A program made the translations under genes and the position numbers. Below are positions 1,682-60,288 of a stretch of 64,000 nt of DNA, one piece after another. Origin of the DNA: Promethearchaeota archaeon. GTDB lineage: Archaea > Asgardarchaeota > Lokiarchaeia > Sigyniarchaeales > SOKP01. Numbering within the stretch: position 1 is the first letter of the stretch; each line of letters begins with the position of its first letter. The stretch spans positions 96,001 to 160,000 of the forward strand of contig RDOA01000002.1 of the NCBI GenBank assembly GCA_011364925.1, written 5' to 3'. The notes under the pieces are model-generated. The model was not told where the DNA came from. It did not search any database and saw nothing but the letters and a program-made list of their open reading frames with translations.

Positions 1682-2251
1682 CTATTTTCCTTTAGAATTA
1701 TATACTAGTTCTGCGATTTTCTGAAATACAATTTTTACATTCTCACCAGTAAGTGCGGAAGTTTCGAAATATGGTGCGTTAAGTTTATCGCTTAAGTGTT
1801 CTGCCATTGGCAAAATTATCTTCCGTTCCTCTTTTAAATCTATTTTGTTCCCGATTAAAACTCTTGGCACTCCACTAAGACCATACTTAACCGCAGTATT
1901 ATACCAGTTGTTAACGTTACTAAATGTGCTTGAACGCGTAGTATCGAATACTAAGAGTATTCCGTCTGCTCCATTGAAGTATGGGCGATGTAGCATATAA
2001 AATTGAGGTTGTCCAGCGATATCCCAAAACATTAGATTTACTGTGGCGTCCTTTTCCTTTAATTCGATTGTTTCTTTTAATATTGAGACTCCAACGGTTG
2101 GTAAATACTTATGCTCGAATTGATTTGTTGCGAAATTTGTAAGAAGGCTTGTTTTTCCGACTGCAGGGTCTCCGATTACGATAACTTTATAAATCGCCTC
2201 AGTTTTTCCTTTAAAAACAATGCTTCCTTCTTTCTTCTCGTTATCGCTCAT
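1682..2251 (-). CDS. Rab-like small GTPase with canonical motifs
   Basis: G1 GDPAVGKTS, G2 PTVG, G3 WDIAGQ, G4 NKID, G5 ETSAL; no C-terminal prenylation cysteines. Confidence 0.95.
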   Translation of the reverse strand: MSDNEKKEGSIVFKGKTEAIYKVIVIGDPAVGKTSLLTNFATNQFEHKYLPTVGVSILKETIELKEKDATVNLMFWDIAGQPQFYMLHRPYFNGADGILLVFDTTRSSTFSNVNNWYNTAVKYGLSGVPRVLIGNKIDLKEERKIILPMAEHLSDKLNAPYFETSALTGENVKIVFQKIAELVYNSKGK

Positions 2252-2392
2252 GTGACTTTCAATCGATTATGATTTTAATTTATTTTTGTTATAATAAATA
2301 TGAACTTCTTATTTATATTTCTTAACAATTTATTTTACATTTTAGGCTTTAAGAACAAAAAAACTATGTTTTTGTATGTAACCACCTAAAGC

Positions 2393-3031
2393 TCAATTTT
2401 TTACATCTAATTTTTTAACCCAAAAATCAATTTTCTCCCCTAAGTGAACCTCTAAACTCTTTGAAGATTGTTCGTTATTATCGATTATATCTTGTAGCGA
2501 ATTAGCAGAATCCAACTGAGTTAAGATTTGTGAAATCTCATACAGCATTTTATGACCACCAGTAAATTCGTAGATATCTTCTTTAATTTGCTCTAAAATT
2601 GCTTTTACCGCTTGAGGTTCGCTAAAGCTACTTAGATTAGTTTTTAGGGCGCTTAACTGATTCAATATCAAATTTTTTTTGCTTGTTGCTGATTCATCTC
2701 TTTCAATTGCATTCTCGACTTCTTGTTTTTTTAACGGGAGAGACTTTAGATTCATTATCAGCGATTTGATCAAATTTAATTCATCTTCCACCTGCTTCTG
2801 ATTTTTAATTACATTCGTCAATTGCGGGGTTAATCCCTTAATTTCAATAGTAGATTTGTGCAATTCTTCAACCATATCAGTTAACTGTGTGATCTTCAGA
2901 TTAGTTTGTCCCATTTTAGTAATAATATCTAAACCAAATTTCTCTAATATTAAGGAGAAAGAAGTCATCTTCTTCTCTAACTCATTTAGAGATTTCTCCA
3001 AATCTTCTCCATTTGAACTCATTGATTTCAC
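2393..3031 (-). CDS. Hypothetical coiled-coil protein with a C-terminal helical domain (..KIDFWVKKL)
   Basis: Heptad-rich N-terminal half; C-terminal ~95 aa align by eye with the C-terminus of 58108..60288. Confidence 0.75.
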   Translation of the reverse strand: MKSMSSNGEDLEKSLNELEKKMTSFSLILEKFGLDIITKMGQTNLKITQLTDMVEELHKSTIEIKGLTPQLTNVIKNQKQVEDELNLIKSLIMNLKSLPLKKQEVENAIERDESATSKKNLILNQLSALKTNLSSFSEPQAVKAILEQIKEDIYEFTGGHKMLYEISQILTQLDSANSLQDIIDNNEQSSKSLEVHLGEKIDFWVKKLDVKN

Positions 3032-3204
3032 TCTTAGGTTTTACAAATTGAAATATTCTCAACCAAAAAAGTAAGATTGTTACCAATCTAAGGGAGAATA
3101 TTATATAAAGATCAATTTATTATTCTTTTTATAAGTAAATAATTAATGCATAAAAATATAAATTCAAGTTTTTTGAATCAAATTATTTCGCATTTCAAAA
3201 TTTT

Positions 3205-4098
3205 GTGATTACCTTGATTCAGTATATTAATATCCTCACTCGTGACGGTAAATCATTATTATTTAGGAATTATGGTAGTTCAGATGTCGATAGAGATTTG
3301 TTAGCAGGATTTCTGAGCGCGTTCTCGGGTTTCATGAAAGAGATTAGCCAAAGCGATATTAAATCCACAGCTACTGACGAATTCAAATATTTTTACACGA
3401 TTATAGAGGAGATTTTAATTGTGGTGTGTGCAGATCTAACTGATGAAGATGCAGCTATAAACACGAAAATTACTACTATTAAAGTAAAATTTGTCGAAGA
3501 ATATGGTAAAGTTATAAAAAGTGGGGAATGGTCAGGGAATCGCACAATATTTGAGGGGTTTGGACGTGAACTTGATGATGTTATTCTCGGAGAGATTAAG
3601 GTGTCAATACTTGGCCTGGGCGGTGTTGGCAAAACGACCCTTCTACGATTAATTTGTGGGGAAAAGATAAACTTAGAATATCAGCCTACCATAAATGTAG
3701 ACATTACTAATTATGATGGGGCAGAGATTGGAGTAAATCGTTCTATTATGCTATGGGATTTTGCTGGTCAATCTAATTATCGAGCCCTCTGGCCAAGTCT
3801 ACTCGATAGTACTGACATAGTTCTATTAGTGCTTGATTCTAGTTACGAATCTTTAAATCCCACTAAAGAGATTCTACGAGATATTTTGGAAAAACATTAC
3901 AAAGATACACTAGTTATTGGAATTGCAAATAAGCAAGATTTACCCAATAGACTTACGCCTAAATTCTGCGAGAGAATTCTTTCCGAGGTTAGAAAAGATC
4001 CTCCAATTCAAGTTTATGATATGGTGGCAATTGATCCAAATTATCGAGAAAAAATTCGCGCAATTCTAAGAGACGCGATAAGTAAAGTGTACCAATAG
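3205..4098 (+). CDS. Longin-domain + Arf-like small GTPase fusion
   Basis: N-terminal longin pattern (IQYINILTRDGKSLLFRNY..DLLAGFLSAFSGF), then GLGGVGKTT, PTI, WDFAGQ, ANKQDL; GTG start. Confidence 0.9.
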   Translation: MITLIQYINILTRDGKSLLFRNYGSSDVDRDLLAGFLSAFSGFMKEISQSDIKSTATDEFKYFYTIIEEILIVVCADLTDEDAAINTKITTIKVKFVEEYGKVIKSGEWSGNRTIFEGFGRELDDVILGEIKVSILGLGGVGKTTLLRLICGEKINLEYQPTINVDITNYDGAEIGVNRSIMLWDFAGQSNYRALWPSLLDSTDIVLLVLDSSYESLNPTKEILRDILEKHYKDTLVIGIANKQDLPNRLTPKFCERILSEVRKDPPIQVYDMVAIDPNYREKIRAILRDAISKVYQ

Positions 4099-4125
4099 CT
4101 AAAATGTTCTAAGAAAGAAGAATTT

Positions 4126-4659
4126 CTATTGCTCTTTAAACTCGTATACTAATTCCGCGATCTTTTCAAAGACTTCTTTAACATTTTCTCCAGTAACTTC
4201 TGATGTTTCGTAATACAGAGCATTTATTTTTTCGCTTAAATGTTCAGCCATAGGAAGAATAATCTTCCTTTCTTCTGTTAAATGGCTCTTGTTTCCGACT
4301 AAGATTTTTGGTATATCTCTTAATCCATATTTCACAGCTGAACTATACCAGTTGTTAATATTACTGAACGAGCTTGAACGCGTGAGATCGAATATTAAAA
4401 GCATACCATCAGCTCCGCTGAAATACGGACGATGTATCATATAAAATTGTGGTTGTCCAGCGATGTCCCAAAACATCAGGTGAACTCGGGTGTTGTATTT
4501 CCTAAGCTCGACTGATGTTTTTAAAATTGAAACGCCTACGGACGGTAAATGCTTTTCCTCAAACTCCTTTTCGGTAAATTTAGTGATAAGTTCCGACTTA
4601 CCAACTTGTGGGTCTCCTAAAACTATAATTTTAAAAAGTGCTTCACTTTTAGCTGACAT
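4126..4659 (-). CDS. Rab-like small GTPase with variant G4/G5
   Basis: GDPQVGKSE, PSVG, WDIAGQ, NKSH, ETSEV; paralogue of 1682..2251. Confidence 0.92.
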   Translation of the reverse strand: MSAKSEALFKIIVLGDPQVGKSELITKFTEKEFEEKHLPSVGVSILKTSVELRKYNTRVHLMFWDIAGQPQFYMIHRPYFSGADGMLLIFDLTRSSSFSNINNWYSSAVKYGLRDIPKILVGNKSHLTEERKIILPMAEHLSEKINALYYETSEVTGENVKEVFEKIAELVYEFKEQ

Positions 4660-4757
4660 ACTAAGTATTTTGGTAGTTCGTAATTTTTGAATATTATTCT
4701 ATTGGAGAATTAAATAATTTTATAAACATGTTTATTATCCTTCTCACTTAATCGAAT

Positions 4758-4964
4758 TTATCGGGATTGTTTGATATTCTCAATTGATTGCGACATCAGA
4801 GTTAATTTTCCCATGATATGGCTAAAAAAGTTTGAGATTATGTCTTCAATTTGGCTAGTTCTCATTAGAATTGCCACTGCTTCGCTGTAGGTTTTACAGC
4901 CATTAACTTCTTTTATTTTTTTAAGATCGTTTTTTATTTTTTCATTCAAATCGATTGTAGGCAT
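4758..4964 (-). CDS. Small ribbon-helix-helix-like DNA-binding protein
   Basis: MPTIDLNEKIKNDLKKIK...KTYSEAVAILM resembles archaeal RHH/VapB-type proteins. Confidence 0.6.
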   Translation of the reverse strand: MPTIDLNEKIKNDLKKIKEVNGCKTYSEAVAILMRTSQIEDIISNFFSHIMGKLTLMSQSIENIKQSR

Positions 4965-4994
4965 AATTTAATATAGGTTTTTTATATATATAAA

Positions 4995-5031
4995 TTTTGT
5001 CATTAGAATGTTAATTGACAACATTACAAAA
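4995..5031. promoter_or_regulatory. Overlapping inverted repeats in the divergent RHH / coiled-coil promoter region
   Basis: TTGTCA(4997)..TGACAA(5016) and AATGTT(5007)..AACATT(5020). Confidence 0.25.
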
Positions 5032-5111
5032 ATATTTATATACTAATAATAATATAAAAATAATATTACATTCATTATTGAAATCAAAATTACAAGAAAT
5101 AAAGCTAAATT

Positions 5112-5999
5112 ATGACAATTGATTGGAGTTTTATTGAACAAAATTATAAAAAACCTGTAAAAGTTAAAGTTGAGGCTCGTGATCTAATGGATTTACGTGC
5201 TAAAGTTAACGATTTAGAAAAGCAACTGACGGATACAAGGAAGGAATTAAATAGAACACAGAATACTCTTAAATCTACGAGCACTAGCCTTGAAAATACA
5301 ACAAACGAATTAAAAAACACAAAAACAAGCCTAGATAAAATTAAAGCAGAACTTAGTGTTACTAAATCTAAATTAGTTCAAACTTCCGCTGATCTCGATA
5401 GCTCAAACTCTAAAGTAAGCGAACTTAAAGAGTTAATCCCTAAACTCGATATCGCAAACTCTAAAATAAGCGAGCTTGAAGGAAAGATCGAGGGACTTGG
5501 TGGTACGATTTCAGATCTCTCTTCTGAATTAGAATATTCTAAATCAGAAATACAAGGCTTAGAAGGAGCTGCTTCAGAGAGTAAAGAACAACACGATGAA
5601 TTGGCTGCCGAAAATCAAGAATTAAATAGCAAACTAATCATTACTCAAGACGAAAATACCTCCCTAAAAAATCAATTAACGGACCTAAATAACGAATTAC
5701 TTCAAAAAGACACAAAACTTAGAGAATTCACCGATTTGATCCACGATAAAGAAAAACTAATCAACGATCAGGCTGCTCACTTAAAAGAAGTTGAAGACGA
5801 GTTAAAAGAACTAAAACAAAGTAATGAACCTAATTTGGGACACCCCTTTGAAACACGGATTATTTGCCCTAGGTGTCAAGCTGTGGGAAAAGATATTAGA
5901 GAAGTCGAGGACAGAAAAAAGGTTCTTCGTCCTGGTCCTATTCCAATGTATGCTAAAAAATATGTCTGTAAAAAATGTGGATATGATTGGAATAAGTAA
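5112..5999 (+). CDS. Long coiled-coil protein with a C-terminal zinc ribbon
   Basis: About 210 aa of heptads, then CPRC...YAKKYVCKKCGYDW. Confidence 0.85.
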   Translation: MTIDWSFIEQNYKKPVKVKVEARDLMDLRAKVNDLEKQLTDTRKELNRTQNTLKSTSTSLENTTNELKNTKTSLDKIKAELSVTKSKLVQTSADLDSSNSKVSELKELIPKLDIANSKISELEGKIEGLGGTISDLSSELEYSKSEIQGLEGAASESKEQHDELAAENQELNSKLIITQDENTSLKNQLTDLNNELLQKDTKLREFTDLIHDKEKLINDQAAHLKEVEDELKELKQSNEPNLGHPFETRIICPRCQAVGKDIREVEDRKKVLRPGPIPMYAKKYVCKKCGYDWNK

Positions 6000-6039
6000 A
6001 TTAACTCCGTACTAGAAGGATTATTTTCCAATTTAAAGG

Positions 6040-6900
6040 TTGTTTAACTTGATTAGATATATAAATTTTCTGACTCAAGCTGGTAAATCAGTATTATTCC
6101 GAAATTATGGATCCTCGGACATTGATAAAGGCTTAACGAAAGAAATTTTAAATATTTTTAAAGTTGCAAGCCAGAATGAAAGTGAAATTACAATTAATAT
6201 TACAGATGAATTCAAATATTTTTCTGCCACGATTGGTGAATACATAATTATAGTTTGCACCGATCTCGAGGACGAAAATGCTATTATCAAGTCCAAAATT
6301 CACGCCCTTAAGACAAAATTTAACAAAATAATAAGTAAGAATTATGAATTAATTCATGAATTTGAGCAAAATCTTGATGATATTATTCTTCCACCAATAA
6401 AAGTTGCGATTGTTGGTTTAGGGGGGACCGGTAAAGAAGAATTAATTCAATTAATCTGTGGAGAACAAGTGAACTTAGAATATCAACCGACTATAAACGT
6501 GGATCTTTCGAATTTTGATGGAACAGAGATCGGAGTAAATCGGACTATTATGCTATGGGATTTTCCTGGTCAATCTAATTACAGAGCTCTCTGGGCAAGC
6601 TTACTCGATAGGACTGATATAGTCCTATTAGTACTCGATTCCAGCTATGAATCTTTAAATCCTACTAAAGACATACTTCGCGATATTTTAGAAAAAAATT
6701 TCAAAGATAAACTAATTATCGGTATCGCAAACAAGCAAGACTTACCCCATCGACTCACGCCTAAATTCTGTGAGAGAATGCTTTCAGAGGTAAGAAAAGG
6801 CCCTCCAATTCCAGTTTATGGTATGGTTTCAAGTGATCCAGCCTATCGAGAAAAGATCCACGCAATTCTAAGAGACGCGATAAGGAAACTTTACCCATAG
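6040..6900 (+). CDS. Longin + small GTPase fusion with a degenerate P-loop
   Basis: Close paralogue of 3205..4098; G1 GLGGTGKEE, G3 WDFPGQ, G4 NKQD; TTG start. Confidence 0.88.
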   Translation: MFNLIRYINFLTQAGKSVLFRNYGSSDIDKGLTKEILNIFKVASQNESEITINITDEFKYFSATIGEYIIIVCTDLEDENAIIKSKIHALKTKFNKIISKNYELIHEFEQNLDDIILPPIKVAIVGLGGTGKEELIQLICGEQVNLEYQPTINVDLSNFDGTEIGVNRTIMLWDFPGQSNYRALWASLLDRTDIVLLVLDSSYESLNPTKDILRDILEKNFKDKLIIGIANKQDLPHRLTPKFCERMLSEVRKGPPIPVYGMVSSDPAYREKIHAILRDAIRKLYP

Positions 6901-6927
6901 CGGATAATTTTCAAAAAATAAATATTT

Positions 6928-7497
6928 CTAATGCTCCTTAAACTCATATACTAATTCTGCGATCTTTTTAAAAACTTCTTTAACATTTTCTCCAGTAACT
7001 TCGGATGTTTCATAATATTGCGCATTCAATTTTTTGCCTAGATGTTCAGCCATCGGATGTATAATTTTCCTTTCTTCTGTTAAATGAGTCTTGTTTCCTA
7101 TTAAAATTCTTGGAATTCCACTTAAACCATATTTCACAGCTGTATTAAACCAATTATTAATGTTACTGAATGTACTAAAGCGTGTAAGATCGAACACTAA
7201 AAGCATACCGTCTGCTCCGTTGAAGTAAAGGCGGTGAAGCATGCAGAACTGAGGTTGACCGGCGATGTCCCAAAACATTAGATTTACTGTAACATCCATA
7301 TCTTCTAATTCAATAGTATCTTTTAAAATTGAGACTCCAACCGTTTGTAAATACTTTTCCTTGAACTGATAAGTAGCAAAATTCGAAAGAAGGCTTGTCT
7401 TTCCAACTGCGGGGTCACCGATTACAATAATTTTATAAATTGCTTCAGTTTTCCCTCTAAAAACGATGCTTCCTTCTATTTGCTCGTAATCACTCAA
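6928..7497 (-). CDS. Rab-like small GTPase with variant G4/G5 (mosaic of the other two copies)
   Basis: GDPAVGKTS, WDIAGQ, NKTH, ETSEV. Confidence 0.92.
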   Translation of the reverse strand: MSDYEQIEGSIVFRGKTEAIYKIIVIGDPAVGKTSLLSNFATYQFKEKYLQTVGVSILKDTIELEDMDVTVNLMFWDIAGQPQFCMLHRLYFNGADGMLLVFDLTRFSTFSNINNWFNTAVKYGLSGIPRILIGNKTHLTEERKIIHPMAEHLGKKLNAQYYETSEVTGENVKEVFKKIAELVYEFKEH

Positions 7498-27883: not shown

Positions 27884-30103
<2,220 letters not shown>

Positions 30104-42922: not shown

Positions 42923-43867
42923 ATGACAGAATTTGAACATATTTTTATTGAATGGCCAACCAAAGTTGATGATCAAGGGAATATCATAAGAGAGGGAACA
43001 ATTGATGGCAATTACGCTGTAATTTCGATTAATCGACCCGATCGATTGAATGCGTTAACAGAGCAAACTGTTTCTGAAATTTCTAGAGCGTTAAGAATGA
43101 TGGAAATTGATAGTAGCGTTCGAGCAGTTGTTCTTCGAGGCACTAAGGAGTTTACAAAGAAACCAGCATTTTCCGCGGGAGCAGATTTAGCCGCTGCTTT
43201 TAGTCCTGGTCTAAGACCAAATATAACGTGGCACATGGCATTAGCGATGAGAATTAGGCATCGCGATTACGATGAGATCGAACAATTCTCGAAACCATTA
43301 ATTGCTGCTGTTGATGGATTTGCATACGGTGGTGGATGTGAACTAGTATTATGTTGTGATCTCGTAATTGTATCTGATAGAGCGAGTTTAGGACTCCCTG
43401 AGATCAATCGAGGTATTTTTCCTGCAAATGGAGGAGTGACTCGTATGGCAGAGAGAGTGGGAACTAATAGAGCTTTACAAATGGCGATGACGGGAGAACC
43501 AATCAGCGGTCAAATTGCACTTGAATGGGGTTTGGCTAATTGGATCGCTCCAGCGGGAGAAGAGTTTGAAAAACTCGTTCACGAGAAAGCTAAATGGTTT
43601 GGGAACGCTCCTACTACTGCGTTATTTGTGATAAAGAAGTGTGTGAAGTTTGGAACAAGGAACGTCCAGTTAGGATTAATAATGGAACAGATGGGTTTTG
43701 GAATCAATCAAGTCTCATTTGACGCGAAAGAGGGAATAATGGCTTTTAATAGGAAAATAAAGTGTCCTAAATGTGGTGGCAAAGGCAAATTTGAAGATGG
43801 TACTACTTGCGATGTCTGTAAAGGAAATAGAAAAGTAAAGGATACCCCTCATTTTAAAGGGGAATAA
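42923..43867 (+). CDS. Enoyl-CoA hydratase/crotonase with a DnaJ-type Zn-finger insert
   Basis: NRPDRLNAL, FSAGADL, KPLIAAVDG.A.GGGCE, LPEI..GIFP; CPKCGGKG..CDVCKG near the C-terminus. Confidence 0.92.
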   Translation: MTEFEHIFIEWPTKVDDQGNIIREGTIDGNYAVISINRPDRLNALTEQTVSEISRALRMMEIDSSVRAVVLRGTKEFTKKPAFSAGADLAAAFSPGLRPNITWHMALAMRIRHRDYDEIEQFSKPLIAAVDGFAYGGGCELVLCCDLVIVSDRASLGLPEINRGIFPANGGVTRMAERVGTNRALQMAMTGEPISGQIALEWGLANWIAPAGEEFEKLVHEKAKWFGNAPTTALFVIKKCVKFGTRNVQLGLIMEQMGFGINQVSFDAKEGIMAFNRKIKCPKCGGKGKFEDGTTCDVCKGNRKVKDTPHFKGE

Positions 43868-43938: not shown

Positions 43939-44487
43939 ATGGAAAATATTGAATTAATCGAAGAAATCAGTGATGGAAACCTTTTCCTACGAAAAATTAC
44001 TCGAAACGACGCTTCTTTTTTTTATCTGAGTCTCAAAGAAAAGGAAATGACTAATTATCTCTCGTTAGGACCGTTAAATTCTTTCGAACATTCAAAAAGA
44101 TTGATAAAGAGCTATTTAAGATCTTGGGATAAGTATCTCCAATTTAATTATGTGATTGAATTAAGAGAATATGGTTCCATCAAACCAATTGGTTCAGTAA
44201 GTTTATGGGCAATAAACTGGTTCCATTCACGTTCCGAAATAGGGATTTGGATTGTTCCTAAATATTGGGAACAAGGCTTAGGCACAAAATCTATTATATT
44301 AATAAAAAACATCGCGTTTAACCACTTAAATTTGAATAGACTTGAGGCTCATATTGCCGTTCAAAATGAGAGATCTATTAGAATGTTTAAAAAATGTAGC
44401 TTTTTAGAAGAAGGCAAATTACATATGTATTTAAAGTTAAACGGAGAATTTCAGGATGCAATTATTTTATCCTGTCTAAACTCTTAA
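43939..44487 (+). CDS. RimJ/RimL-type GNAT acetyltransferase
   Basis: L.LRKI...D, EIGIWI..YWEQGLG, LNLNRLEA...N.RS..F.K..F..EG. Confidence 0.9.
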   Translation: MENIELIEEISDGNLFLRKITRNDASFFYLSLKEKEMTNYLSLGPLNSFEHSKRLIKSYLRSWDKYLQFNYVIELREYGSIKPIGSVSLWAINWFHSRSEIGIWIVPKYWEQGLGTKSIILIKNIAFNHLNLNRLEAHIAVQNERSIRMFKKCSFLEEGKLHMYLKLNGEFQDAIILSCLNS

Positions 44488-44930
44488 ATTAGATCCGGAC
44501 TTAGTTCGTAACTTTTTAAGACATTTTTAGCTTTCACAATATCATCTATTTCCGAAGAAAATGTCTTAAATTGAGAAAAATTCCCATTAAAATCGACCAA
44601 TTCTTTTTTATACTTAGTTAAAAACTTTTCAAAAACTTCCATAGCAATAGTGTCAATTATTTTTCTCTTCTGCTTCTTATTATCCACTTTACTATCGCAT
44701 TTAAAGATGAGGTGAAGATGAGAGTTCGGCTCAGTATAAAAATAAAAAACGCTTTTATTCATTTTTAAAGTATTTAAACTCTCGTTAAAACCGTATTTCG
44801 TAAAGCGACAAATTTGATCGAAATAGCTCGCAATCACCTGATAGTTCCGTTCAGTTATGGAATTACCTCGGAAATTGTGAAAGAATATTGGTACACCCTT
44901 GTTATTAAGAATAATAATCTCTTGGATCAA
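44484..44930 (-). CDS. Stand-alone longin-domain protein
   Basis: MIQEIIILNNKGVPIFFHNF...F..KY...F.GN...F..F..EID; same pattern as the longin part of 3205..4098. Confidence 0.78.
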   Translation of the reverse strand: MIQEIIILNNKGVPIFFHNFRGNSITERNYQVIASYFDQICRFTKYGFNESLNTLKMNKSVFYFYTEPNSHLHLIFKCDSKVDNKKQKRKIIDTIAMEVFEKFLTKYKKELVDFNGNFSQFKTFSSEIDDIVKAKNVLKSYELSPDLI

Positions 44931-45076
44931 TTTGTATCCAAAAATTATATTTACTTGTGGCTATATAAATCTTCGCTATAACAATATTGAAGAGTTTGAA
45001 TTAATTAACATACCTATTAATAGGGTAATAATTGACGAATTTACTAATGAATAAGTATAGTGTATGAATACATTCA

Positions 45077-46210
45077 CTAATTTTGATTTAAAGTTTTAAT
45101 TATACCCACAATTTTTTTAAATATTTTTAGAGATTCATCAAAGTTTTCTTTTTTTAAGGCTTCTATACCTTGAATGTTATAGTTCCGAATTAAGTTGCTC
45201 GTTTCGGCGATTTCAGAAATCTTATTTATTTTTTTCTCCAGAATTTCTATGTAACCCGAGTACTCGTCCAATTGATCTGCTTTTCCTATGAACCTTGAGA
45301 TTTTAATGATTTGATTAATGTTATTAATAGCTTCTCTAAATTGGTTTTGGGAAATATTTAAATTAATTCTTCCTTCTAATTCTTTTATATCCTCCACTAA
45401 CTTAAGATATTTACTCTCAGCATCAACAACATGCTTTAATTTAGCTTTCAATTTTTGGATGTAATCCGAAAAATCAGATTTTTGTAGCAGTTCTATTTTG
45501 GACTCTAAAATATTTCTTGCTTCATCAAATTCGTAATTATCAGTTAATTTTGAAACTCTTTTGATATTCAATTCTATATCTTCATTAAGATCGTATTTCT
45601 TCTTTAATTCTAAATATGTTGCTTCATATGTTTCCCATTTTTTAAGATTTTTTGAATCATTGAGCACATTTAACAAGTTTCTAGCTTTCTTCAATGCTTC
45701 TCCAGCTAAAAGAAGGTTATTTGTATTGATATAGCTATTGAATTGAATTTCTAGAGGATCAAGTTGCTTAATTAAATTTTTTTGGTTTTTTTGAAATGTA
45801 ATCCAGCGCTTTTCATCTTCAATAAATAAATCTCTTACTCGTTCAAAAGAATTAAGTTTCAAATCTCTTTCGTAGTATTGTTTAAAGTTTTGTATTAGGT
45901 CATGAGCTTCCACAACCTTTCCTTGAGTTACCAACTTTTCGTAATCTTCAATTAACTTTTCGAAGTCGCCTCTTACAGCAATGAAATCTTGATCACTCTT
46001 AGCTTGCGTGTAAAGCGTGGCGATAAGTTCATTTTCTTCTTCCACAACAGAATATAACTTAGCTTGTTTTGCAATATCCACAATTATTTTAGCAGTTTTT
46101 ATTGCCTCATCGTAATTTCCCATTAAGTAGTGGTTATTTGCGATAACCTTTAATTCATCGATTTTCGAGAGGACTTCAATCTTATTCTTGCTATCAATAT
46201 GTTCTTTTAT
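45077..46210 (-). CDS. Helical-repeat (TPR-like) protein paralogous to the C-terminal part of the gelsolin-domain protein; true start upstream of ATG 46123
   Basis: Frame stays open and homologous upstream of 46123; AGGAGG lies 5 nt before an in-frame ATA at 46210. Confidence 0.75.
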   Translation of the reverse strand: MKEHIDSKNKIEVLSKIDELKVIANNHYLMGNYDEAIKTAKIIVDIAKQAKLYSVVEEENELIATLYTQAKSDQDFIAVRGDFEKLIEDYEKLVTQGKVVEAHDLIQNFKQYYERDLKLNSFERVRDLFIEDEKRWITFQKNQKNLIKQLDPLEIQFNSYINTNNLLLAGEALKKARNLLNVLNDSKNLKKWETYEATYLELKKKYDLNEDIELNIKRVSKLTDNYEFDEARNILESKIELLQKSDFSDYIQKLKAKLKHVVDAESKYLKLVEDIKELEGRINLNISQNQFREAINNINQIIKISRFIGKADQLDEYSGYIEILEKKINKISEIAETSNLIRNYNIQGIEALKKENFDESLKIFKKIVGIIKTLNQN

Positions 46211-46227
46211 TTTTTCCTCCTCTCCAT

Positions 46228-47286
46228 TTATACTTTTTTCCTTGTTTCAGTAAACTCTAACTTTCGCACTATTGTTTCAAATATATCTATTGCTCGCGAT
46301 AGCTCCCCGCGTTCCATATTTTTAATTGCTACACCACTTAATTGTGAAACCTCACTAAGTAAATCACTTTTTATCTCATTATATCGGTTTTTTATTTGCT
46401 CTAATTTAATTGGTATTTTTCTGTCTACGAATCTTTGATGCATATTTTCTATACGAGCTAGGAACTCTTTTATTTCCCGCAAATTGTACTTGTTAGCACT
46501 TGGTTCAGATAATTTGGAAAAGATCTCAATTTCCTTTAAAAGTGAATCTTGCTCGATTTTTAATCGGTATACCAAATTTTCATCTTTTAATATGAGTTGC
46601 TGAGCTATTGGAAGTTTAAGTAGGTTGTATTTACTTTCGTATTTCTGCCTTAAATCTTCAACAAGTTTGTGAGCGTCGCGAAATTGTTCTTTATTTACCA
46701 ATTCTTCAAATTCTTTTATGGCTTGTTTGTATTGGAACTTAATCTCCTGAACCACTTCACTTGCGATTGCTCTTGATTTAGCTTCATCAATAAAGTTATT
46801 TTGATCTTGTTCAAGAGAATCGTCATTGATGCTTTTAGCTAATTTCATTATATCCTGAGCAACACTAATAGCACCAACATAGTCGTCTGAGATAAATAAC
46901 TTATCTGCTTTGCTTTTTAGTTTGCTTATCTCGGAGAGAATTGGTAAAAGTTTCGTTTCAAGAGCTTTAATACTAAAGCTCAATACATTCTCTTCAATAC
47001 CAACAACCTCTAGGAACTCTGGTGGTTCTAATCCCGATTCAACAGTAATATTCCTGATAATTTGCAATTCTGGATACTCTTGTGTAATATTCGTTCGGAT
47101 TTGGGGAATTTGGCTTTTTAAACTCTGGGATACTTTTTTTCCTATCCAGATATATAATCTTTTCAGATTCGGAACGTAAAAAGTTAAAATATTAAACAGT
47201 GTTAAGTTTCTTAGCAATTCCTCTGGAAGGATTTCATCAATGCCACCAGAGTAATTTAGCTTAAAAATTCTAATCTCAGAACTCAT
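46228..47286 (-). CDS. Gelsolin-like domain + helical-repeat protein
   Basis: RLYIWIGKKVS...TVESGLEPPEFLEVVG is the gelsolin/villin repeat signature (W.G..S; E.G.E...F). Confidence 0.78.
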   Translation of the reverse strand: MSSEIRIFKLNYSGGIDEILPEELLRNLTLFNILTFYVPNLKRLYIWIGKKVSQSLKSQIPQIRTNITQEYPELQIIRNITVESGLEPPEFLEVVGIEENVLSFSIKALETKLLPILSEISKLKSKADKLFISDDYVGAISVAQDIMKLAKSINDDSLEQDQNNFIDEAKSRAIASEVVQEIKFQYKQAIKEFEELVNKEQFRDAHKLVEDLRQKYESKYNLLKLPIAQQLILKDENLVYRLKIEQDSLLKEIEIFSKLSEPSANKYNLREIKEFLARIENMHQRFVDRKIPIKLEQIKNRYNEIKSDLLSEVSQLSGVAIKNMERGELSRAIDIFETIVRKLEFTETRKKV

Positions 47287-47409
47287 CTATGCAATTATTT
47301 AAGATTCAATACTATTTCAATTTTCTTCAGTAAGAATCTTAATTATAAACAAAATACAGAGAATAAAAAAAATAAAGATTAAAAAAAATATTTTGATATA
47401 TTTTGCCAG

Positions 47410-50400
47410 CTATTTCTTAATTTCTCCCATAAAATCTTTCGTTATTTGTGGCGGTTTAGAAATTTCCTCAGCAGGTTTCCCTTTCAATAATTTGGATGTT
47501 CTAGTAATTTCATTTTGGTATTCAACACTAAAAGCTTTTTTCCTCTCAGTTACATCAATTTTTGGACTCTTGGTTTTCTTCAGTGTTTTAGAGAATTTTC
47601 TAACCTTTCTAACAGATTTAGGATACTTGAATATTTTATGGTAAAGATACAAGTAAGTAACCAAGGCAACTGCTACTAATCCCCCGATTGCAGATAATAA
47701 TTGGAATAATAGTAATTCTCCTGACGGGATAATAACATTTACATGGATTTCATAAGGCGTAAAATCGTATTCATTACCTTTATATGCATTTATTGTGATA
47801 GTGACTGACTGTTGAATTCCCGTTATTGTCGCGGTATATACTCCATTATTGTCAGTTAAGAATCCAATGCCACCAGCCCATCTATATGTCACTTCAGCAC
47901 CTTTCACGAGACCACTAAAGTTTAAATTATGGATTTCAATTTCAAGATAAACTTCTTCGCCAGGTCTTATAGTTATAGTTGATTCTCCGGAAGTCGTTGT
48001 AATATTTGTCTGTATTCTTTCTACATTTACGTACAATTGTTGTATGAAAAACGACTCGAAATTTGCTTTCTCAGCAATTATTGTGAAGAGTTTTAATCCT
48101 ACTCCCAAAACAGATGTATTAATTGTTAATGAATACTGTTCTAAAGTTATATTTTCAATTAACAAATCTGCTAAATCTCCATTTAACTGAATAGTAGCAC
48201 CTGAGATATGATTTCCAGTTCTTACATCGCGATATTTGATTGTAAAAGTGAGAAGCGAACTTACAGTAAGTTCCATATAAGGATCTGTGGTCTTGGATAA
48301 TCCATTAATAAATAGCTCTCCAGTGGTCCCTCTTTCAATGATTTGGATGAAAAATTCGAATAGGGCAGTTTGGTAATTCTCAACTTGAGCGCGGATGACA
48401 ATTCTGTTCAAAGTGCTATTCAAATCGATTATTTCTAGCGTCAAATTGTAATATTCTAAAACTGCATTTTCTGTAAAGTATTCTTTATTAATTATATCAA
48501 CAGCAGCACCACCGAGAAACTCTTTCGTAATGTTATCCAGATATTTAACAGTTATATTTAATGTATCAGTAACTTCCAATTGGATGGTATCTCCATAATA
48601 ATATTGAGTTCCATTTAGAAAAAGGAGTACTTGAGTTTTCTTTTCATTTACAATAAGAGTTATAACTTCTGAGCTCAATGTGTAATTATCTGTTTTTGCG
48701 CTTATGGTTAAAAATTTAACTCCTACTCCTAAATCATCAGAAATTATTGTGATGTTATATTGATTAAATGTTAAATTCTCAGTGAAATTTTGTGGAATCC
48801 CAGATTCAATCAATCGTACATTCGCATTACTGATAAAAGAGTCTGTGCTTAAATCTTTATAAAACACAGTGATATTTAGACTCTCTCCAATTGAAATGTT
48901 ATAAAATTCAAAATTAGTTGACAGAAAACCATTTAAATAAACATCAACTTTACTGCCTCTCTCGGTAACTGAAACGGAAATGATTCTTGAAGAGAGAGTA
49001 TAATTCTCTTTATTGGCTGAAATCGTAAGGAAATTAATACCCAGAGCTAATATCGCTGTGTTAATATTCAGATTATAATCTAATGGCGAATTTTCTGTGA
49101 AATTCTCTGAAACACCTGTACCTGATAGTTGTACTGATGCTCCGCTTATAAAAGAATCAGTAAAACTGTCGTTAAAAGACACTGAAATGCTTAAAATTTC
49201 ACTCCAAGGAACTACGATAGATGTTGTCTCAATCCCGTTTAATATTATATTGTCTAAATATGAATTTCTCTCTTTTACTTCAATCTTGAAACGAATTGAT
49301 TGAGTAGTATAATTTTCTTTATACGCATTAACAGTAAGGAAACTGTTCCCTAAACCGAGATCTGTTGTGTCAATATTTATGAAATATTGATGATAAGAAG
49401 GAATTTCAGTGAAATTTTGTGGATTTCCTATTCCAACTAATTCAACAGTTGCTCCATCGATGTGTGTGTACGGAACTTGCTCAGTATCTCTGTACATTAT
49501 TGTAATATTACCACTATTTCCATATATCATTTCTACAGCCTTATCGAGAGTTTTATCAACACCATCAAGAAAAAGTAATAATTCTGTGTTTCTTTCAATT
49601 ACTTTTATATTTATTAACTCCGATATTGACTCATAGTATTTCTTACTTGCTTCAATCGAAAAGAAATTATTTCCAATAGATAATTCAGTTGAACTGAATA
49701 TTAAACTGTATTGATTAAAAATCAAACTTTCATTGAGAATCCTAGGTCCACCATCTCCTAATAGCCTTACTGTCGCATTAGGAATAAATGCATCTAAGCT
49801 ATCTTTATAGATTCCAGTGACATTTACATCATCGCCCATCGTAACTTCTATTGACTTTTCTAAAGTTTTATCCTGTGAATTTAAAAAAATCCCCAAACTG
49901 GTTGTGTCTTCTATGGTGTTCTTTGTATAATGAATCAAAAGCGATGCATTATCGATAGAGATAACATATTTCTGATCTAAAGAAAATTTATCTGCAAGAT
50001 AGACTTTAATTGAGAGCGTGATATTCACATCTTTTAAGATTAAGTTTGTGACATCAAAACCTCCAACTTTAGCCTCTTGAAATGTTGAAGTTGCCATACT
50101 TAATTTAATAGTTTCTGCATACTGGTTATTATTAATATATACTCTTAATTCTGAGTTTGGAGAATCTTCAGTCCAAGTTTTATCAATTTTATATTTAAAG
50201 TTTAGCGTAGCGTTGTTAATATCAATATTAGAACCACTAATCTTATTTCCAATTTGATTCCAGGAAAGCGAAGTAAATTGGTCAATATTTTTTTCATATG
50301 CAAAGGTTAAATTTACTGACTTTATGAGTAATAATCTCCAATTATCAGCATCTTGACCAAAATTGTCCTCGCACCAAATTCTCATTCCTATAGAGATTCT

Positions 50401-58073: not shown

Positions 58074-58107
58074 ATCATTAAATATAAATTAGGAGATGAA
58101 GAGATAA

Positions 58108-60288
58108 ATGTATTTATTTAAAGATAAGGATGAGGTAGAAATTACTTACACCTGTAAGTTATGTCTACGAGAAGTTCCATTCAAGGTAACCAAAGAAGAA
58201 TATCAAGCAGTAAATAAGTTTCCTATTACTAAACAATTAACCCACGGAGATCCTCCCCACAAACTTATAGTCCATTTTAATCAATACTTAGAAGTTGAGA
58301 ATTTCGAAGTAGAAGAAATACTCAAAAAAGAAGAAATATCTTATTCTAAAGAGCTTACCAGGCAAGTGCTAAGTGAAATAGACCTTACTGATCAAGAAAT
58401 TGAATTATATTTTAGGGTAACTGGTCGCGAAGCTGTTAGTATTGGTGAAATGGCTATTTTAACCGGAAATTCTAAAGCTCAATGTCAAGAAATTGCAGAT
58501 AAATTCGTTGAAAAGGGGTTATTCAAAGAGATTGTTGGAGCTCGACCTCATTACACTGCCTTACCTCCGTATGCGGCGCTTGTTAGTCAATTACAAAAAT
58601 TTCATAAGTATATTTCCGATATTAAATCTCATATCCCAGTTCAATTAAGTAAAACGTTTGCGAAACTAGAATCCGAATCGGGAAAAGTCGAAGTCCAACC
58701 GCAACCTGTTCCTACAGAATTAATGAAAGAATTGAAAGACAATATGCTTACACAAATTCGTTCTCAAAAGAAAGAATTTGATGAAACACTTGCAGTGATG
58801 GATCAAATAAGGGGGATTACGGATGATATTTCTAATCTGGAAGGGTATACTGATTCAATTATGGGCACCCAAATGGGAGATCTCAAAAAACAATTCGAAG
58901 ATATTAACGATAAAACTTCTCAGATTATCAAAGGGCAAATTACCGATTTAAAAAGCGAATTTGACAATATTAAATCGACTGTGTCTCAGAACTTACAAAA
59001 ATTGCGCCTTGGAGTAATTCAGCAATCAGTAGATCAAGTAATCGATAAAGTAATAAATGCCAAGTTGAAGGAAATATCCGATAATATAAATGTCCAATTA
59101 AGCGTGAGCCAGGTTGCATTTTCTGACGAGTTGAAAAAAGTAACTCAAGGTGTTGACCAAGAACTCATTTCAAAACTAAAAGAATCTCTGAAGAGTACAA
59201 TTAAAAATATTGATGGTTTAAGTACGAAAGCACAAGAAGATAAAGAACAGATTTATTCAGAGATAACAGAAAACTTTAATAGAGCCGTACAAATGGCTGA
59301 AGAAAAAATTGAAGGTATCTCTGGCACAACTTTTGAATCCTTAGGCACTCTAAAAAATGTCTTTTCTAACCAAATAGTTGCGACATTAGACAACACGCTC
59401 GATGACATCTTAAAGAAACTCGAAACATCAGAACAAGTCACGAGTGAATTCTGGGAACAGGCTAAAACCGGTAGATCAATTACTATGAAAGATATTTGGT
59501 TCATCAGGTCCCCTGAAGCTGCTAAAGCTCATATTAACGACGAGATCTCAAAAGCGAAAATGAGAGTTTTACTGGTAGCACCTCAAATAAGTGATATTGA
59601 TATCGATGCATTAATGGATCGCCCCTCAAGAATTAATTTTAGAATAGCAGCTAGTATAGATTTTTCAAATCCCCGACACGCGGAAATTGTTGACCAATTA
59701 GATAAAATGGATAATGTAGATTATAGACATCGCTCCTTACAAAATTTATGGGGCGTTAATAGAGATTACGAGGAAGTGATTGTGTGTGTTTTGTCAAAAG
59801 CTGAAGTACGCGGTGAAAGTATTACTGAAATTGCGGGTATAGGTAGTATTATAGAAGAACACATCAAAATTTTCGTCCCAATTCTTGAAGAAGCGTGGAT
59901 GGGTTCGAGAAAAGAAGTTGTTCACACGGTTAAATCGTCAATTGCAAAAGAAACTCCAGAAGAACCTGTTAAGTTAAAACCCGTAGTGGAAATACCAAAA
60001 ACAGCTCCTCCCACCGAACAAGTAACCCCTGCTGAAGAAGAAACATTGCTTACTAAACAATTTAATCTAATCCTTGATAATGTAGACTCACTTATGGGAG
60101 TAGAACTCTCTTCTGCTCTAGAAAAATTCCAGAGTGAATACATAAAAGAACAAGGCTATAACAGTGTTTTAAAAAACATGCATAATACGAGCACAATGTT
60201 AAAAAGCAAAACCTACGTTCTCAGTCAGTCAGAGAAAGAAGACCTTAAAATGAAAATGAATTTCTGGAAACAAAAACTTAATCTTTAA
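58108..60288 (+). CDS. TrmB-like protein: Zn-ribbon, wHTH, long helical/coiled-coil insert, PLD-like effector domain, C-terminal helical domain
   Basis: CKLC...HGDPPH; LTDQEIELY...KGLF..GARPHYTALPP; IWFIRS.EA..HI...ISKAKMRVLLVAP...RD.EEV. Confidence 0.75.
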   Translation: MYLFKDKDEVEITYTCKLCLREVPFKVTKEEYQAVNKFPITKQLTHGDPPHKLIVHFNQYLEVENFEVEEILKKEEISYSKELTRQVLSEIDLTDQEIELYFRVTGREAVSIGEMAILTGNSKAQCQEIADKFVEKGLFKEIVGARPHYTALPPYAALVSQLQKFHKYISDIKSHIPVQLSKTFAKLESESGKVEVQPQPVPTELMKELKDNMLTQIRSQKKEFDETLAVMDQIRGITDDISNLEGYTDSIMGTQMGDLKKQFEDINDKTSQIIKGQITDLKSEFDNIKSTVSQNLQKLRLGVIQQSVDQVIDKVINAKLKEISDNINVQLSVSQVAFSDELKKVTQGVDQELISKLKESLKSTIKNIDGLSTKAQEDKEQIYSEITENFNRAVQMAEEKIEGISGTTFESLGTLKNVFSNQIVATLDNTLDDILKKLETSEQVTSEFWEQAKTGRSITMKDIWFIRSPEAAKAHINDEISKAKMRVLLVAPQISDIDIDALMDRPSRINFRIAASIDFSNPRHAEIVDQLDKMDNVDYRHRSLQNLWGVNRDYEEVIVCVLSKAEVRGESITEIAGIGSIIEEHIKIFVPILEEAWMGSRKEVVHTVKSSIAKETPEEPVKLKPVVEIPKTAPPTEQVTPAEEETLLTKQFNLILDNVDSLMGVELSSALEKFQSEYIKEQGYNSVLKNMHNTSTMLKSKTYVLSQSEKEDLKMKMNFWKQKLNL

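Follow-up and report, generated by a model that had tools for sequence, protein, structure and literature searches.

Surface receptor genes, their P7 and P8 neighbours and an adjoining gelsolin-X cassette in a Promethearchaeota archaeon

The current analysis concerns a locus of eight genes within a 64,000-nucleotide (nt) stretch of contig RDOA01000002.1 from a Promethearchaeota archaeon. This whole stretch is referred to here as the window, and all positions are numbered within it. The genome assembly to which it belongs comprises 3.9 Mb in 112 contigs, and 3518 of its open reading frames (ORFs) entered the motif count presented below. As a preliminary description of this DNA had proposed, six consecutive minus-strand genes, encoding three large surface proteins (hereafter receptors), a gelsolin-domain protein (gelsolin-X), a helical paralog of its second domain and a small longin-like protein, diverge from two plus-strand genes, here termed P7 and P8. 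The intergenic gaps are also as claimed there and measure about 105-215 nt. All eight proteins stay below the Pfam and NCBIfam cut-offs. The features of the locus, with protein lengths in amino acids (aa), are as follows.

53325-56603, minus strand: double receptor, 1092 aa; signal anchor, head 1, transmembrane helix, tail 1, second anchor, head 2, transmembrane helix, tail 2.
51487-53187, minus strand: short receptor, 566 aa; signal anchor, double jelly-roll head of ~400 aa (predicted), transmembrane helix 465-483, basic tail of ~80 aa.
47410-51270, minus strand: long receptor, 1286 aa; head, six stalk repeats of ~105 aa, transmembrane helix, tail.
47365-47388, minus strand: two T8 runs, terminator-like, just 3' of the long receptor stop codon.
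47287-47331, minus strand: conserved non-coding block directly 5' of the gelsolin-X start codon, with BRE/TATA-like elements (BRE, B recognition element) at about -42 to -27.
46228-47286, minus strand: gelsolin-X, 352 aa; gelsolin domain at 1-97 and, at 99-344, long helical hairpins (domain X).
45077-46123, minus strand: head-less helical paralog of domain X, 348 aa from the ATG at 46123; frame open over 45077-46243.
44484-44930, minus strand: small longin-like protein, 148 aa, TTG start; belongs to an Asgard family with multiple copies.
56604-56798, no strand: intergenic region from which the receptor cluster and P7 diverge.
56799-58073, plus strand: P7, 424 aa; belongs to an unnamed family of cytoplasmic proteins that spans the phylum and shows weak winged-helix signals.
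58108-60288, plus strand: P8, 726 aa; N-terminal extension, TrmB-type helix-turn-helix (HTH), helical region of ~270 aa, conserved C-domain, variable linker, C-terminal helices.

The three surface proteins had been described as sharing four homologous heads and four conserved cytoplasmic tails, and this paralogy is borne out by BLASTP. The four heads of ~400 aa are mutually 33-41% identical (E 1e-58 to 1e-87), while the four segments composed of transmembrane helix and tail share 27-47% identity (E 9e-13 to 5e-22). Every receptor has an N-terminal hydrophobic anchor as well as a C-terminal transmembrane helix, and the 1092-aa ORF contains four hydrophobic segments that make up two complete head-transmembrane-tail units, a double form also seen in at least six other genomes (e.g. 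loci L009-L013 and L045). The stalk of the 1286-aa receptor is built of six ~105-aa repeats, which were missed by a plain self-BLAST and found by a relaxed search. In the ectodomains, N-x-S/T sequons number 2.3-3.1 per 100 aa, compared with 0.47 for the genome median; the tails have a strongly basic composition, with 19-23 K+R versus 5-8 D+E.

The heads had also been called lectin-like, and the structural model of the head agrees, as it is predicted to consist of two jelly rolls of the CBM/MAM/lectin type (CBM, carbohydrate-binding module). In this model (predicted local distance difference test, pLDDT, 85.2; predicted TM-score, pTM, 0.78), domain 1 is discontinuous (residues 18-55 plus 290-410) and CBM-like, matching CBM15, CBM36 and CBM35 with Z 8.5-9.7, and the inserted domain (58-285) resembles MAM, CBM27 and legume lectin domains with Z 8.3-9.2, all of which are values that barely exceed background. 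No PDB or Pfam relation of the heads was found by sequence, and whole-model Foldseek matches had TM-scores of at most 0.2. A quick ESM Atlas search matched the two-domain arrangement in three Promethearchaeota clusters only (TM-score 0.80-0.86). The likeness to CBM/MAM-type ectodomains (CBM15, 1GNY; CBM36; the RPTPmu MAM domain, 2V5Y; Bacteroides SGBP-B) lies in the jelly-roll folds and is confined to the fold level, with no sequence relation. The head alignment contains an invariant acidic cluster (D260, D266 and D268), and by profile search the head is present in 129 of the 151 genomes of the class. We infer that the receptor heads bind glycans or the surfaces of partner cells. A fifth head paralog is encoded outside the window (G000:C38:45882-48056; L037:9961-12057). 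It has a different cytoplasmic region of ~257 aa, without the juxtamembrane motif discussed below and without a P7 or P8 neighbour, and two genes downstream of it lies the gene for a 1086-aa protein with about 20 transmembrane segments.

The gelsolin domain reported for the 352-aa protein is genuine, as profile, fold and the W-x-G signature agree. Compared with Pfam on its own, gelsolin-X yields sub-threshold matches only; a profile of 28 family members compared with PDB matches Thorarchaeota ProGel (7c2f_B) at E 3.4e-5 and Lokiarchaeota 2DGel (7whg_G) at E 0.03. The family search returned 100 matches, of which the named ones are all Asgard and none carries a Pfam domain; the names of these homologs point to Lokiarchaeia / Promethearchaeota as the source of the DNA. 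In the AlphaFold2 (AF2) model (pLDDT 85.6), an alpha/beta domain at residues 1-97 is followed by eight long helices at 99-344 (DSSP). The best 50 Foldseek matches of this model are all gelsolins, villins or adseverins, headed by 7c2f_B from the ProGel/actin complex (TM-score 0.79, target-normalised), and residues 4-96 superpose on 7c2f_D in VIA with 88 of 88 residues aligned (Z 13.1, root-mean-square deviation 2.1 Å). The signature itself reads 'YIWIGK', and its W47 and G49 are kept in at least 90% of the 28 family members. W-x-G is the gelsolin signature that is replaced by WP in cofilins (PMC7444086). The preliminary description had cautioned that a single gelsolin-like domain could be of the Sec23/24 kind; no Sec23/24 chain is among the best 50 Foldseek or best 50 VIA rows for the gelsolin domain, by which a family that is not among these rows is not excluded. 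The domain is closer to actin-binding gelsolins than to anything else found.

As modelled, gelsolin-X has the 1DGelX type of architecture. Like Thorarchaeota 1DGelX/ProGel (PDB 7C2F), it possesses a single gelsolin domain with a hydrophobic-W-x-G signature, followed by a helical, coiled-coil-like domain X, although the correspondence between the two X domains is a likeness of architecture, not a sequence comparison. It differs in belonging to the class Lokiarchaeia and in having the head-less paralog gene directly downstream. Thor 1DGelX binds actin with a dissociation constant (Kd) of 7.7 uM and severs F-actin in a Ca-independent manner (Akil et al. 2020, PMC7444086). ProGel binds actin only weakly (PMC7444086).

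The 348-aa protein had been presented as a paralogous helical protein, which BLASTP confirms: the helical part of gelsolin-X (135-306) is 24% identical to it (E 5e-7). The three TPR families matched by the paralog or domain X (TPR_8, TPR_1 and TPR_2) score 14.6-17.4 bits, under their cut-offs of 25.7-27.8, and the resemblance of the helical part of gelsolin-X to MIT/TPR three-helix units (Z 9-10) is within background for helical proteins. A comparison of the paralog with the TFIIB-like protein encoded next to the longin ortholog in the sister genus found nothing. In several species, gelsolin-X and the paralog are overlapping or directly adjoining genes; in the window, the paralog frame is open for 389 aa, crossing the gelsolin-X stop codon. 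Upstream of the paralog ATG at 46123, the same frame encodes a conserved N-terminal extension (46124-46243, minus strand) ending in ...SKIDELKVIANNHYL. This extension contains no ATG, GTG or TTG, an ATA overlaps the gelsolin-X stop codon, and several related species have the same conserved extension upstream of their first ATG. Another gelsolin-like ORF of the same genome, outside the window (G000:C91:3387-4294), encodes a ProGel-like protein of 121 aa with a weak match to the gelsolin-X profile (E 3e-4) and lies 54 nt from the convergent gene for a 349-aa protein with a Ras-like domain.

The 148-aa protein had been called a longin. There are borderline longin signals in its family; neither the protein itself nor the family profile has a significant Pfam or PDB match. 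A paralog (L053:6518-6916) scores 25.6 bits against Fuz_longin_1, for which the cut-off is 26.1, and this near-cut-off likeness to MON1/FUZ/HPS1-type longins (PF19036) belongs to that paralog, not to the 148-aa protein. A language-model (Atlas feature) search places the 148-aa protein near a 'Roadblock/LAMTOR2' cluster (0.92). Given the borderline paralog score and the proximity to this cluster, the designation longin-like is plausible for the 148-aa protein. Its family has 9-13 copies per genome.

When the order of these genes is compared among related species, it is evident that the locus is uniform within its genus. Our sample comprised 19 loci from 19 genomes, each read as far as its contig reaches, and all 19 exhibit P8 and P7, 2-5 divergent receptor genes, gelsolin-X, the paralog and the longin-like gene. 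Wherever the contig extends beyond the latter, convergent genes for a GNAT protein, a crotonase and a hydroxyacyl-CoA dehydrogenase follow. Gelsolin-X is 29-65% identical between the species of the genus, with 29-32% as the lowest values. The preliminary description had envisaged receptor tails that recruit helical adaptors linking to actin and GTPases, and a genus-restricted version of this idea would have the tails recruit gelsolin-X, its paralog and the longin-like protein, the cassette having been inserted at this site because it works with the receptors. Consistent with such a tie, the cassette lies on the same strand and 90-155 nt from the last receptor gene in 19 of 19 loci, between proteins that are down to 29-35% identical, and its gelsolin domain is genuine. 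Helical hairpin domains are often peptide-binding. Furthermore, Lokiarchaea possess actin-filled protrusions studded with surface proteins (PMC9834061). Despite this, the entire neighbourhood is collinear within the genus. Since the unrelated metabolic flanking genes are equally collinear, genus-wide adjacency is by itself no argument for a functional tie.

Outside the genus the arrangement breaks down. In five loci of a sister genus in the same family, the P8-P7 pair and similar receptors are present and GNAT comes directly after the last receptor, with GNAT, crotonase and hydroxyacyl-CoA dehydrogenase genes that are orthologous to the flanks in the genus (53-73% identity). Neither gelsolin-X nor the paralog was found in five sister-genus genomes that are 98-100% complete, the sole signal in the search being one weak match to a 215-aa ORF. 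Sister-genus receptors nonetheless keep the whole tail, its distal half included. We had considered the distal half as a possible mark of cassette-adjacent receptors, which is ruled out by its retention in sister genera that lack the cassette. In other families of the order, the relatives of gelsolin-X are soluble proteins of 323-914 aa that are not encoded beside receptors; their neighbours are SMC, GH57, ketohexokinase or unassigned soluble genes. Because the sister-genus loci lack the trio and the other-family relatives reside elsewhere, the trio is a receptor-adjacent cassette in one genus only. In one other-family genome, the gene for a 914-aa gelsolin-X relative precedes that for a TPR protein whose C-terminal domain resembles the 148-aa protein; a general module of gelsolin, TPR and longin that this genome prompted did not recur at the other loci examined.

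The synteny comparison outside the genus thus contradicts a conserved gene order, and with it the system-level reading loses its support. Tails that recruit helical adaptors toward actin and GTPases are not supported, as the trio is missing from sister-genus loci whose receptors keep the full tail and no small GTPase gene lies within the locus; elsewhere the genome has 79 Ras-family matches, and its actin-family genes number five. Similarly, receptor and adaptor fail to co-occur across the lineages that keep the tail, which speaks against the suggested integrin- or cadherin-like system being a conserved one. The resemblance to integrin-talin and cadherin-catenin consists of single-pass glycoproteins, a conserved short cytoplasmic tail and an actin-regulator gene nearby; it is an analogy only, with no homology and with receptor and putative adaptor co-occurring in one genus only. 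A complex prediction that combined tail residues 33-108 with the gelsolin-X, paralog and longin-like alignments scored 0.05 versus a mark of 0.32; made without controls, it counts neither way. In view of the sister-genus loci, the other-family neighbours and the signals described next, we consider the genus-restricted recruitment model very unlikely. There is an even slimmer chance, in our estimation, that a recent insertion of the cassette beside an older module created a prokaryotic surface-receptor-to-actin link in this genus, with the tails recruiting a gelsolin-X/paralog heterodimer and the longin-like protein.

Signals resembling terminators and a promoter lie between the receptors and the cassette, which is a further point against their recruitment of it. 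Runs of at least seven T occur at 6.9 per kb in the gaps of the receptor cluster versus 0.09 per kb in coding sequence. T7-T8 runs stand 3' of each of the three receptor genes, with two T8 runs after the 1286-aa gene, and the gaps within the cassette have none. In archaea, oligo-T runs act as transcription terminators. The 45 nt directly 5' of the gelsolin-X start codon are near-identical in ten species whose gelsolin-X proteins are 40-65% identical. At about -42 to -27 they contain a purine-rich element resembling a BRE and another resembling a TATA box, and the in-frame TAG that the window has in this block makes it non-coding. Based upon the T runs, the conserved promoter-like block and the overlap of the gelsolin-X and paralog genes, we read the receptors and the gelsolin-X/paralog unit as being transcribed separately.

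In place of the cassette, it is P7 that accompanies the receptors across lineages. Two earlier juxtamembrane patterns for the receptor tail proved too narrow, the first finding the three receptors of the window only and the second missing them, and both were replaced. In the genome of the window, the motif was defined as a C-terminal transmembrane helix plus juxtamembrane [RK][IFY]P..[VI][KR]K, and in the phylum sample as [RKWQ][IVFY]P..[VI][KR][KQLT] after a C-terminal transmembrane helix. The former combination is present in 5 of 3518 ORFs, all five of which, distributed over three loci, lie within 1-3 genes of a P7-family gene; the genome has five such genes. Across the phylum, the P7 family itself was found in 78 of 121 genomes, representing 29 of 43 genera. 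In a P7-centred sample of 47 loci from across the phylum, 15 of the 51 P7 genes have an adjacent, co-directional gene for a large protein with a C-terminal transmembrane helix plus motif. P7 genes and tail-motif genes often overlap or lie a few nt apart. In every sufficiently long receptor locus examined outside the genus, P7/P8 homologs are the immediate neighbours of the receptors, mostly co-directional and with gaps of about 10-30 nt, and the same arrangement is found in second loci inside the genus. Outside Lokiarchaeia, the pairing of P7 with the tail motif occurs without P8. Among cultured Lokiarchaeia, Prometheoarchaeum and Lokiarchaeum possess receptors together with P7 and P8.

Two further loci of the same genome, outside the window, contain receptor/P7 pairs with unrelated ectodomains of 1435-1470 aa (G000:C24:14259-20536 and G000:C112:46519-53246). 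The C112 receptor has P7 paralogs on both sides, whereas the C24 P7 gene adjoins a convergent gene for a Ras-like domain protein. Seven other P7 genes of the phylum sample adjoin the gene for a protein of ~282 aa, whose N-terminal domain resembles the 148-aa protein at five of the seven loci. In these five loci, all from other Asgard lineages (L059, L075, L079, L081 and L097), the proteins encoded are one of ~215 aa, a P7-family protein of ~360 aa and the ~282-aa protein; in L076 and L080 the same-sized neighbour has no profile match. This suggests that the P7 family and the 148-aa-like longin family work together in other Asgard lineages.

As for the identity of P7, no PDB match was obtained by profile, Pfam HTH matches are sub-threshold only, and an Atlas feature search returned unannotated clusters only. 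The best 120 of its 955 homologs are unnamed or labelled 'hypothetical', with no Pfam domain. An N-terminal longin, which had been proposed previously and would fit an NPRL2/GATOR1-like layout, received no Pfam or PDB match, and hhalign against the 148-aa longin-like family gave a probability of 0.2%. The naming of P8 as a TrmB gene fared better, as its family carries a TrmB-type HTH: PF01978 is found in 10 of 13 members (best E 3e-8) and the P8 profile matches 3qph_A at E 1.3e-3, while the P8 of the window itself scores 16.1 bits against the TrmB Pfam family, under the cut-off of 25.6. For the conserved C-domain of P8 there is no Pfam or PDB match. P8 has in common with TrmB regulators (PDB 3QPH) the winged HTH and the first part of the dimerisation helix, to which it adds an N-terminal segment, about 270 aa of inserted helices, the C-domain and a helical module at the C-terminus. 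We found no account of the receptor family, of the motif or of P7 in the literature searched.

These features permit more than one account of P7 and P8. They could be ordinary locus-specific transcription factors for the neighbouring surface genes, making no contact with the tail, in which case the motif would be a topogenic, lipid-binding or sorting signal. Regulators often adjoin their target genes, and both the TrmB-type HTH of P8 and the weak winged-helix matches of P7 are compatible with such a role, as is the strongly basic tail, which is reminiscent of positive-inside signals. However, a plain positive-inside signal requires neither an invariant proline nor fixed spacing, P7 is paired with the motif without P8 outside Lokiarchaeia, and the one-to-one multiplication of P7 paralogs with tail-motif genes is more like that of cognate protein pairs. 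We consider this account unlikely. Alternatively, P7, together with P8 in Lokiarchaeia, could serve to assemble, target or anchor the envelope proteins that carry the tail motif, perhaps placing them on protrusions or tethering them to a scaffold beneath the membrane, without any part in signalling. The same genomic coupling of P7 and tail motif speaks for it; the ~270-aa helical region and conserved C-terminal module of P8 are unusual for a plain regulator, and Lokiarchaeal envelopes lack an S-layer and display many complex surface proteins (PMC9834061). Nevertheless, no membrane-binding or scaffold domain was recognised, and the HTH of P8 points to DNA binding. This second account seems to us decidedly unlikely.

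The explanation that we favour, with little more conviction than doubt, is that the locus is a composite of two units, a receptor/P7/P8 module and a genus-specific gelsolin-X cassette. Unit 1 (53325-60288 plus 47410-53187) would be part of an Asgard-wide module in which putatively N-glycosylated, tail-motif surface proteins are paired with P7. Lokiarchaeia add the TrmB-like P8 to this module, and the ectodomain at this particular locus is the Lokiarchaeia-wide, predicted double jelly-roll head. Presumably, the tail motif is recognised by its cognate P7, which together with the putatively DNA-binding P8 would turn surface events into a transcriptional or assembly response. This logic is reminiscent of anti-sigma factors with extracytoplasmic function (ECF) sigma factors and of ToxR-like cognate pairs, in which a membrane protein gene is likewise paired with a cytoplasmic putative DNA-binding partner and multiplied as paralogs; it is a resemblance of logic only, with no homology. 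Unit 2 (44484-47331) is a three-gene cassette that occupies this position in this genus only, apparently with its own promoter. The head-less paralog is a probable heterodimer partner of gelsolin-X and appears to be translationally coupled to it in related species. Homology to Thorarchaeota 1DGelX makes the regulation of Lokiactin filaments, independently of the receptors, the most likely role of the cassette. Of all this, the analysis shows the domain identities, the patterns of gene order and the signals in the sequence; the binding events, the signalling by P7 and P8 and the activity on actin are inferred.

Several points weigh against this composite reading. Firstly, about two thirds of the P7-family genes in the sample adjoin genes of other kinds, which means that the family extends beyond tail-motif receptors. 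Secondly, the motif was refined on examples already seen and the genomes are related, and the counts therefore overstate independence. Thirdly, P7 belongs to no recognisable family, and its contact with the tail is hypothetical. With regard to the cassette, its trio of genes has stayed adjacent to the receptors despite gelsolin-X identities of 29-65%, which leaves room for a genus-specific tie to the receptors, and the actin role is extrapolated from Thor 1DGelX, while ProGel itself is a weak actin binder (PMC7444086). Lastly, the assignments of promoter and terminator that divide the two units are sequence-based.

Elsewhere in the window, a 731-aa two-domain peroxidase of the catalase-peroxidase type (PF00141, E 4e-71) is encoded at 27884-30079 on the minus strand. 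The G+C content of its gene is 0.42-0.51 versus a background of 0.27-0.32, with sharp borders, and it looks like a recent horizontal acquisition; Rfam has no match in this G+C-rich stretch. Five of the Ras-family matches of the genome fall within 6 kb at about 1700-7450 of the window (G000:C38:97703-103434). The crotonase has a weak match to the DnaJ-type CxxCxGxG motif near its C-terminus (43763-43837; PF00684, E 4e-4, under the cut-off).

Asgard archaea extend actin-filled protrusions that are covered with unidentified surface proteins, and how the cell surface communicates with the cytoskeleton bears on models of eukaryogenesis. Lokiarchaeum ossiferum, for example, has abundant unidentified surface proteins as well as eight gelsolin-like genes (PMC9834061). 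In this context, the present comparison adds a Lokiarchaeal member, as judged by its modelled architecture, of the biochemically characterised 1DGelX type of gelsolin, together with a head-less paralog. At the same time, the idea of a conserved receptor-gelsolin system loses its chief genomic argument. The lead that takes its place is a juxtamembrane motif on large single-pass surface proteins, coupled to P7 genome-wide and phylum-wide. If it is true that P7 reads the tail, this pairing would give Asgard archaea a widespread pathway of their own from the surface into the cytoplasm.

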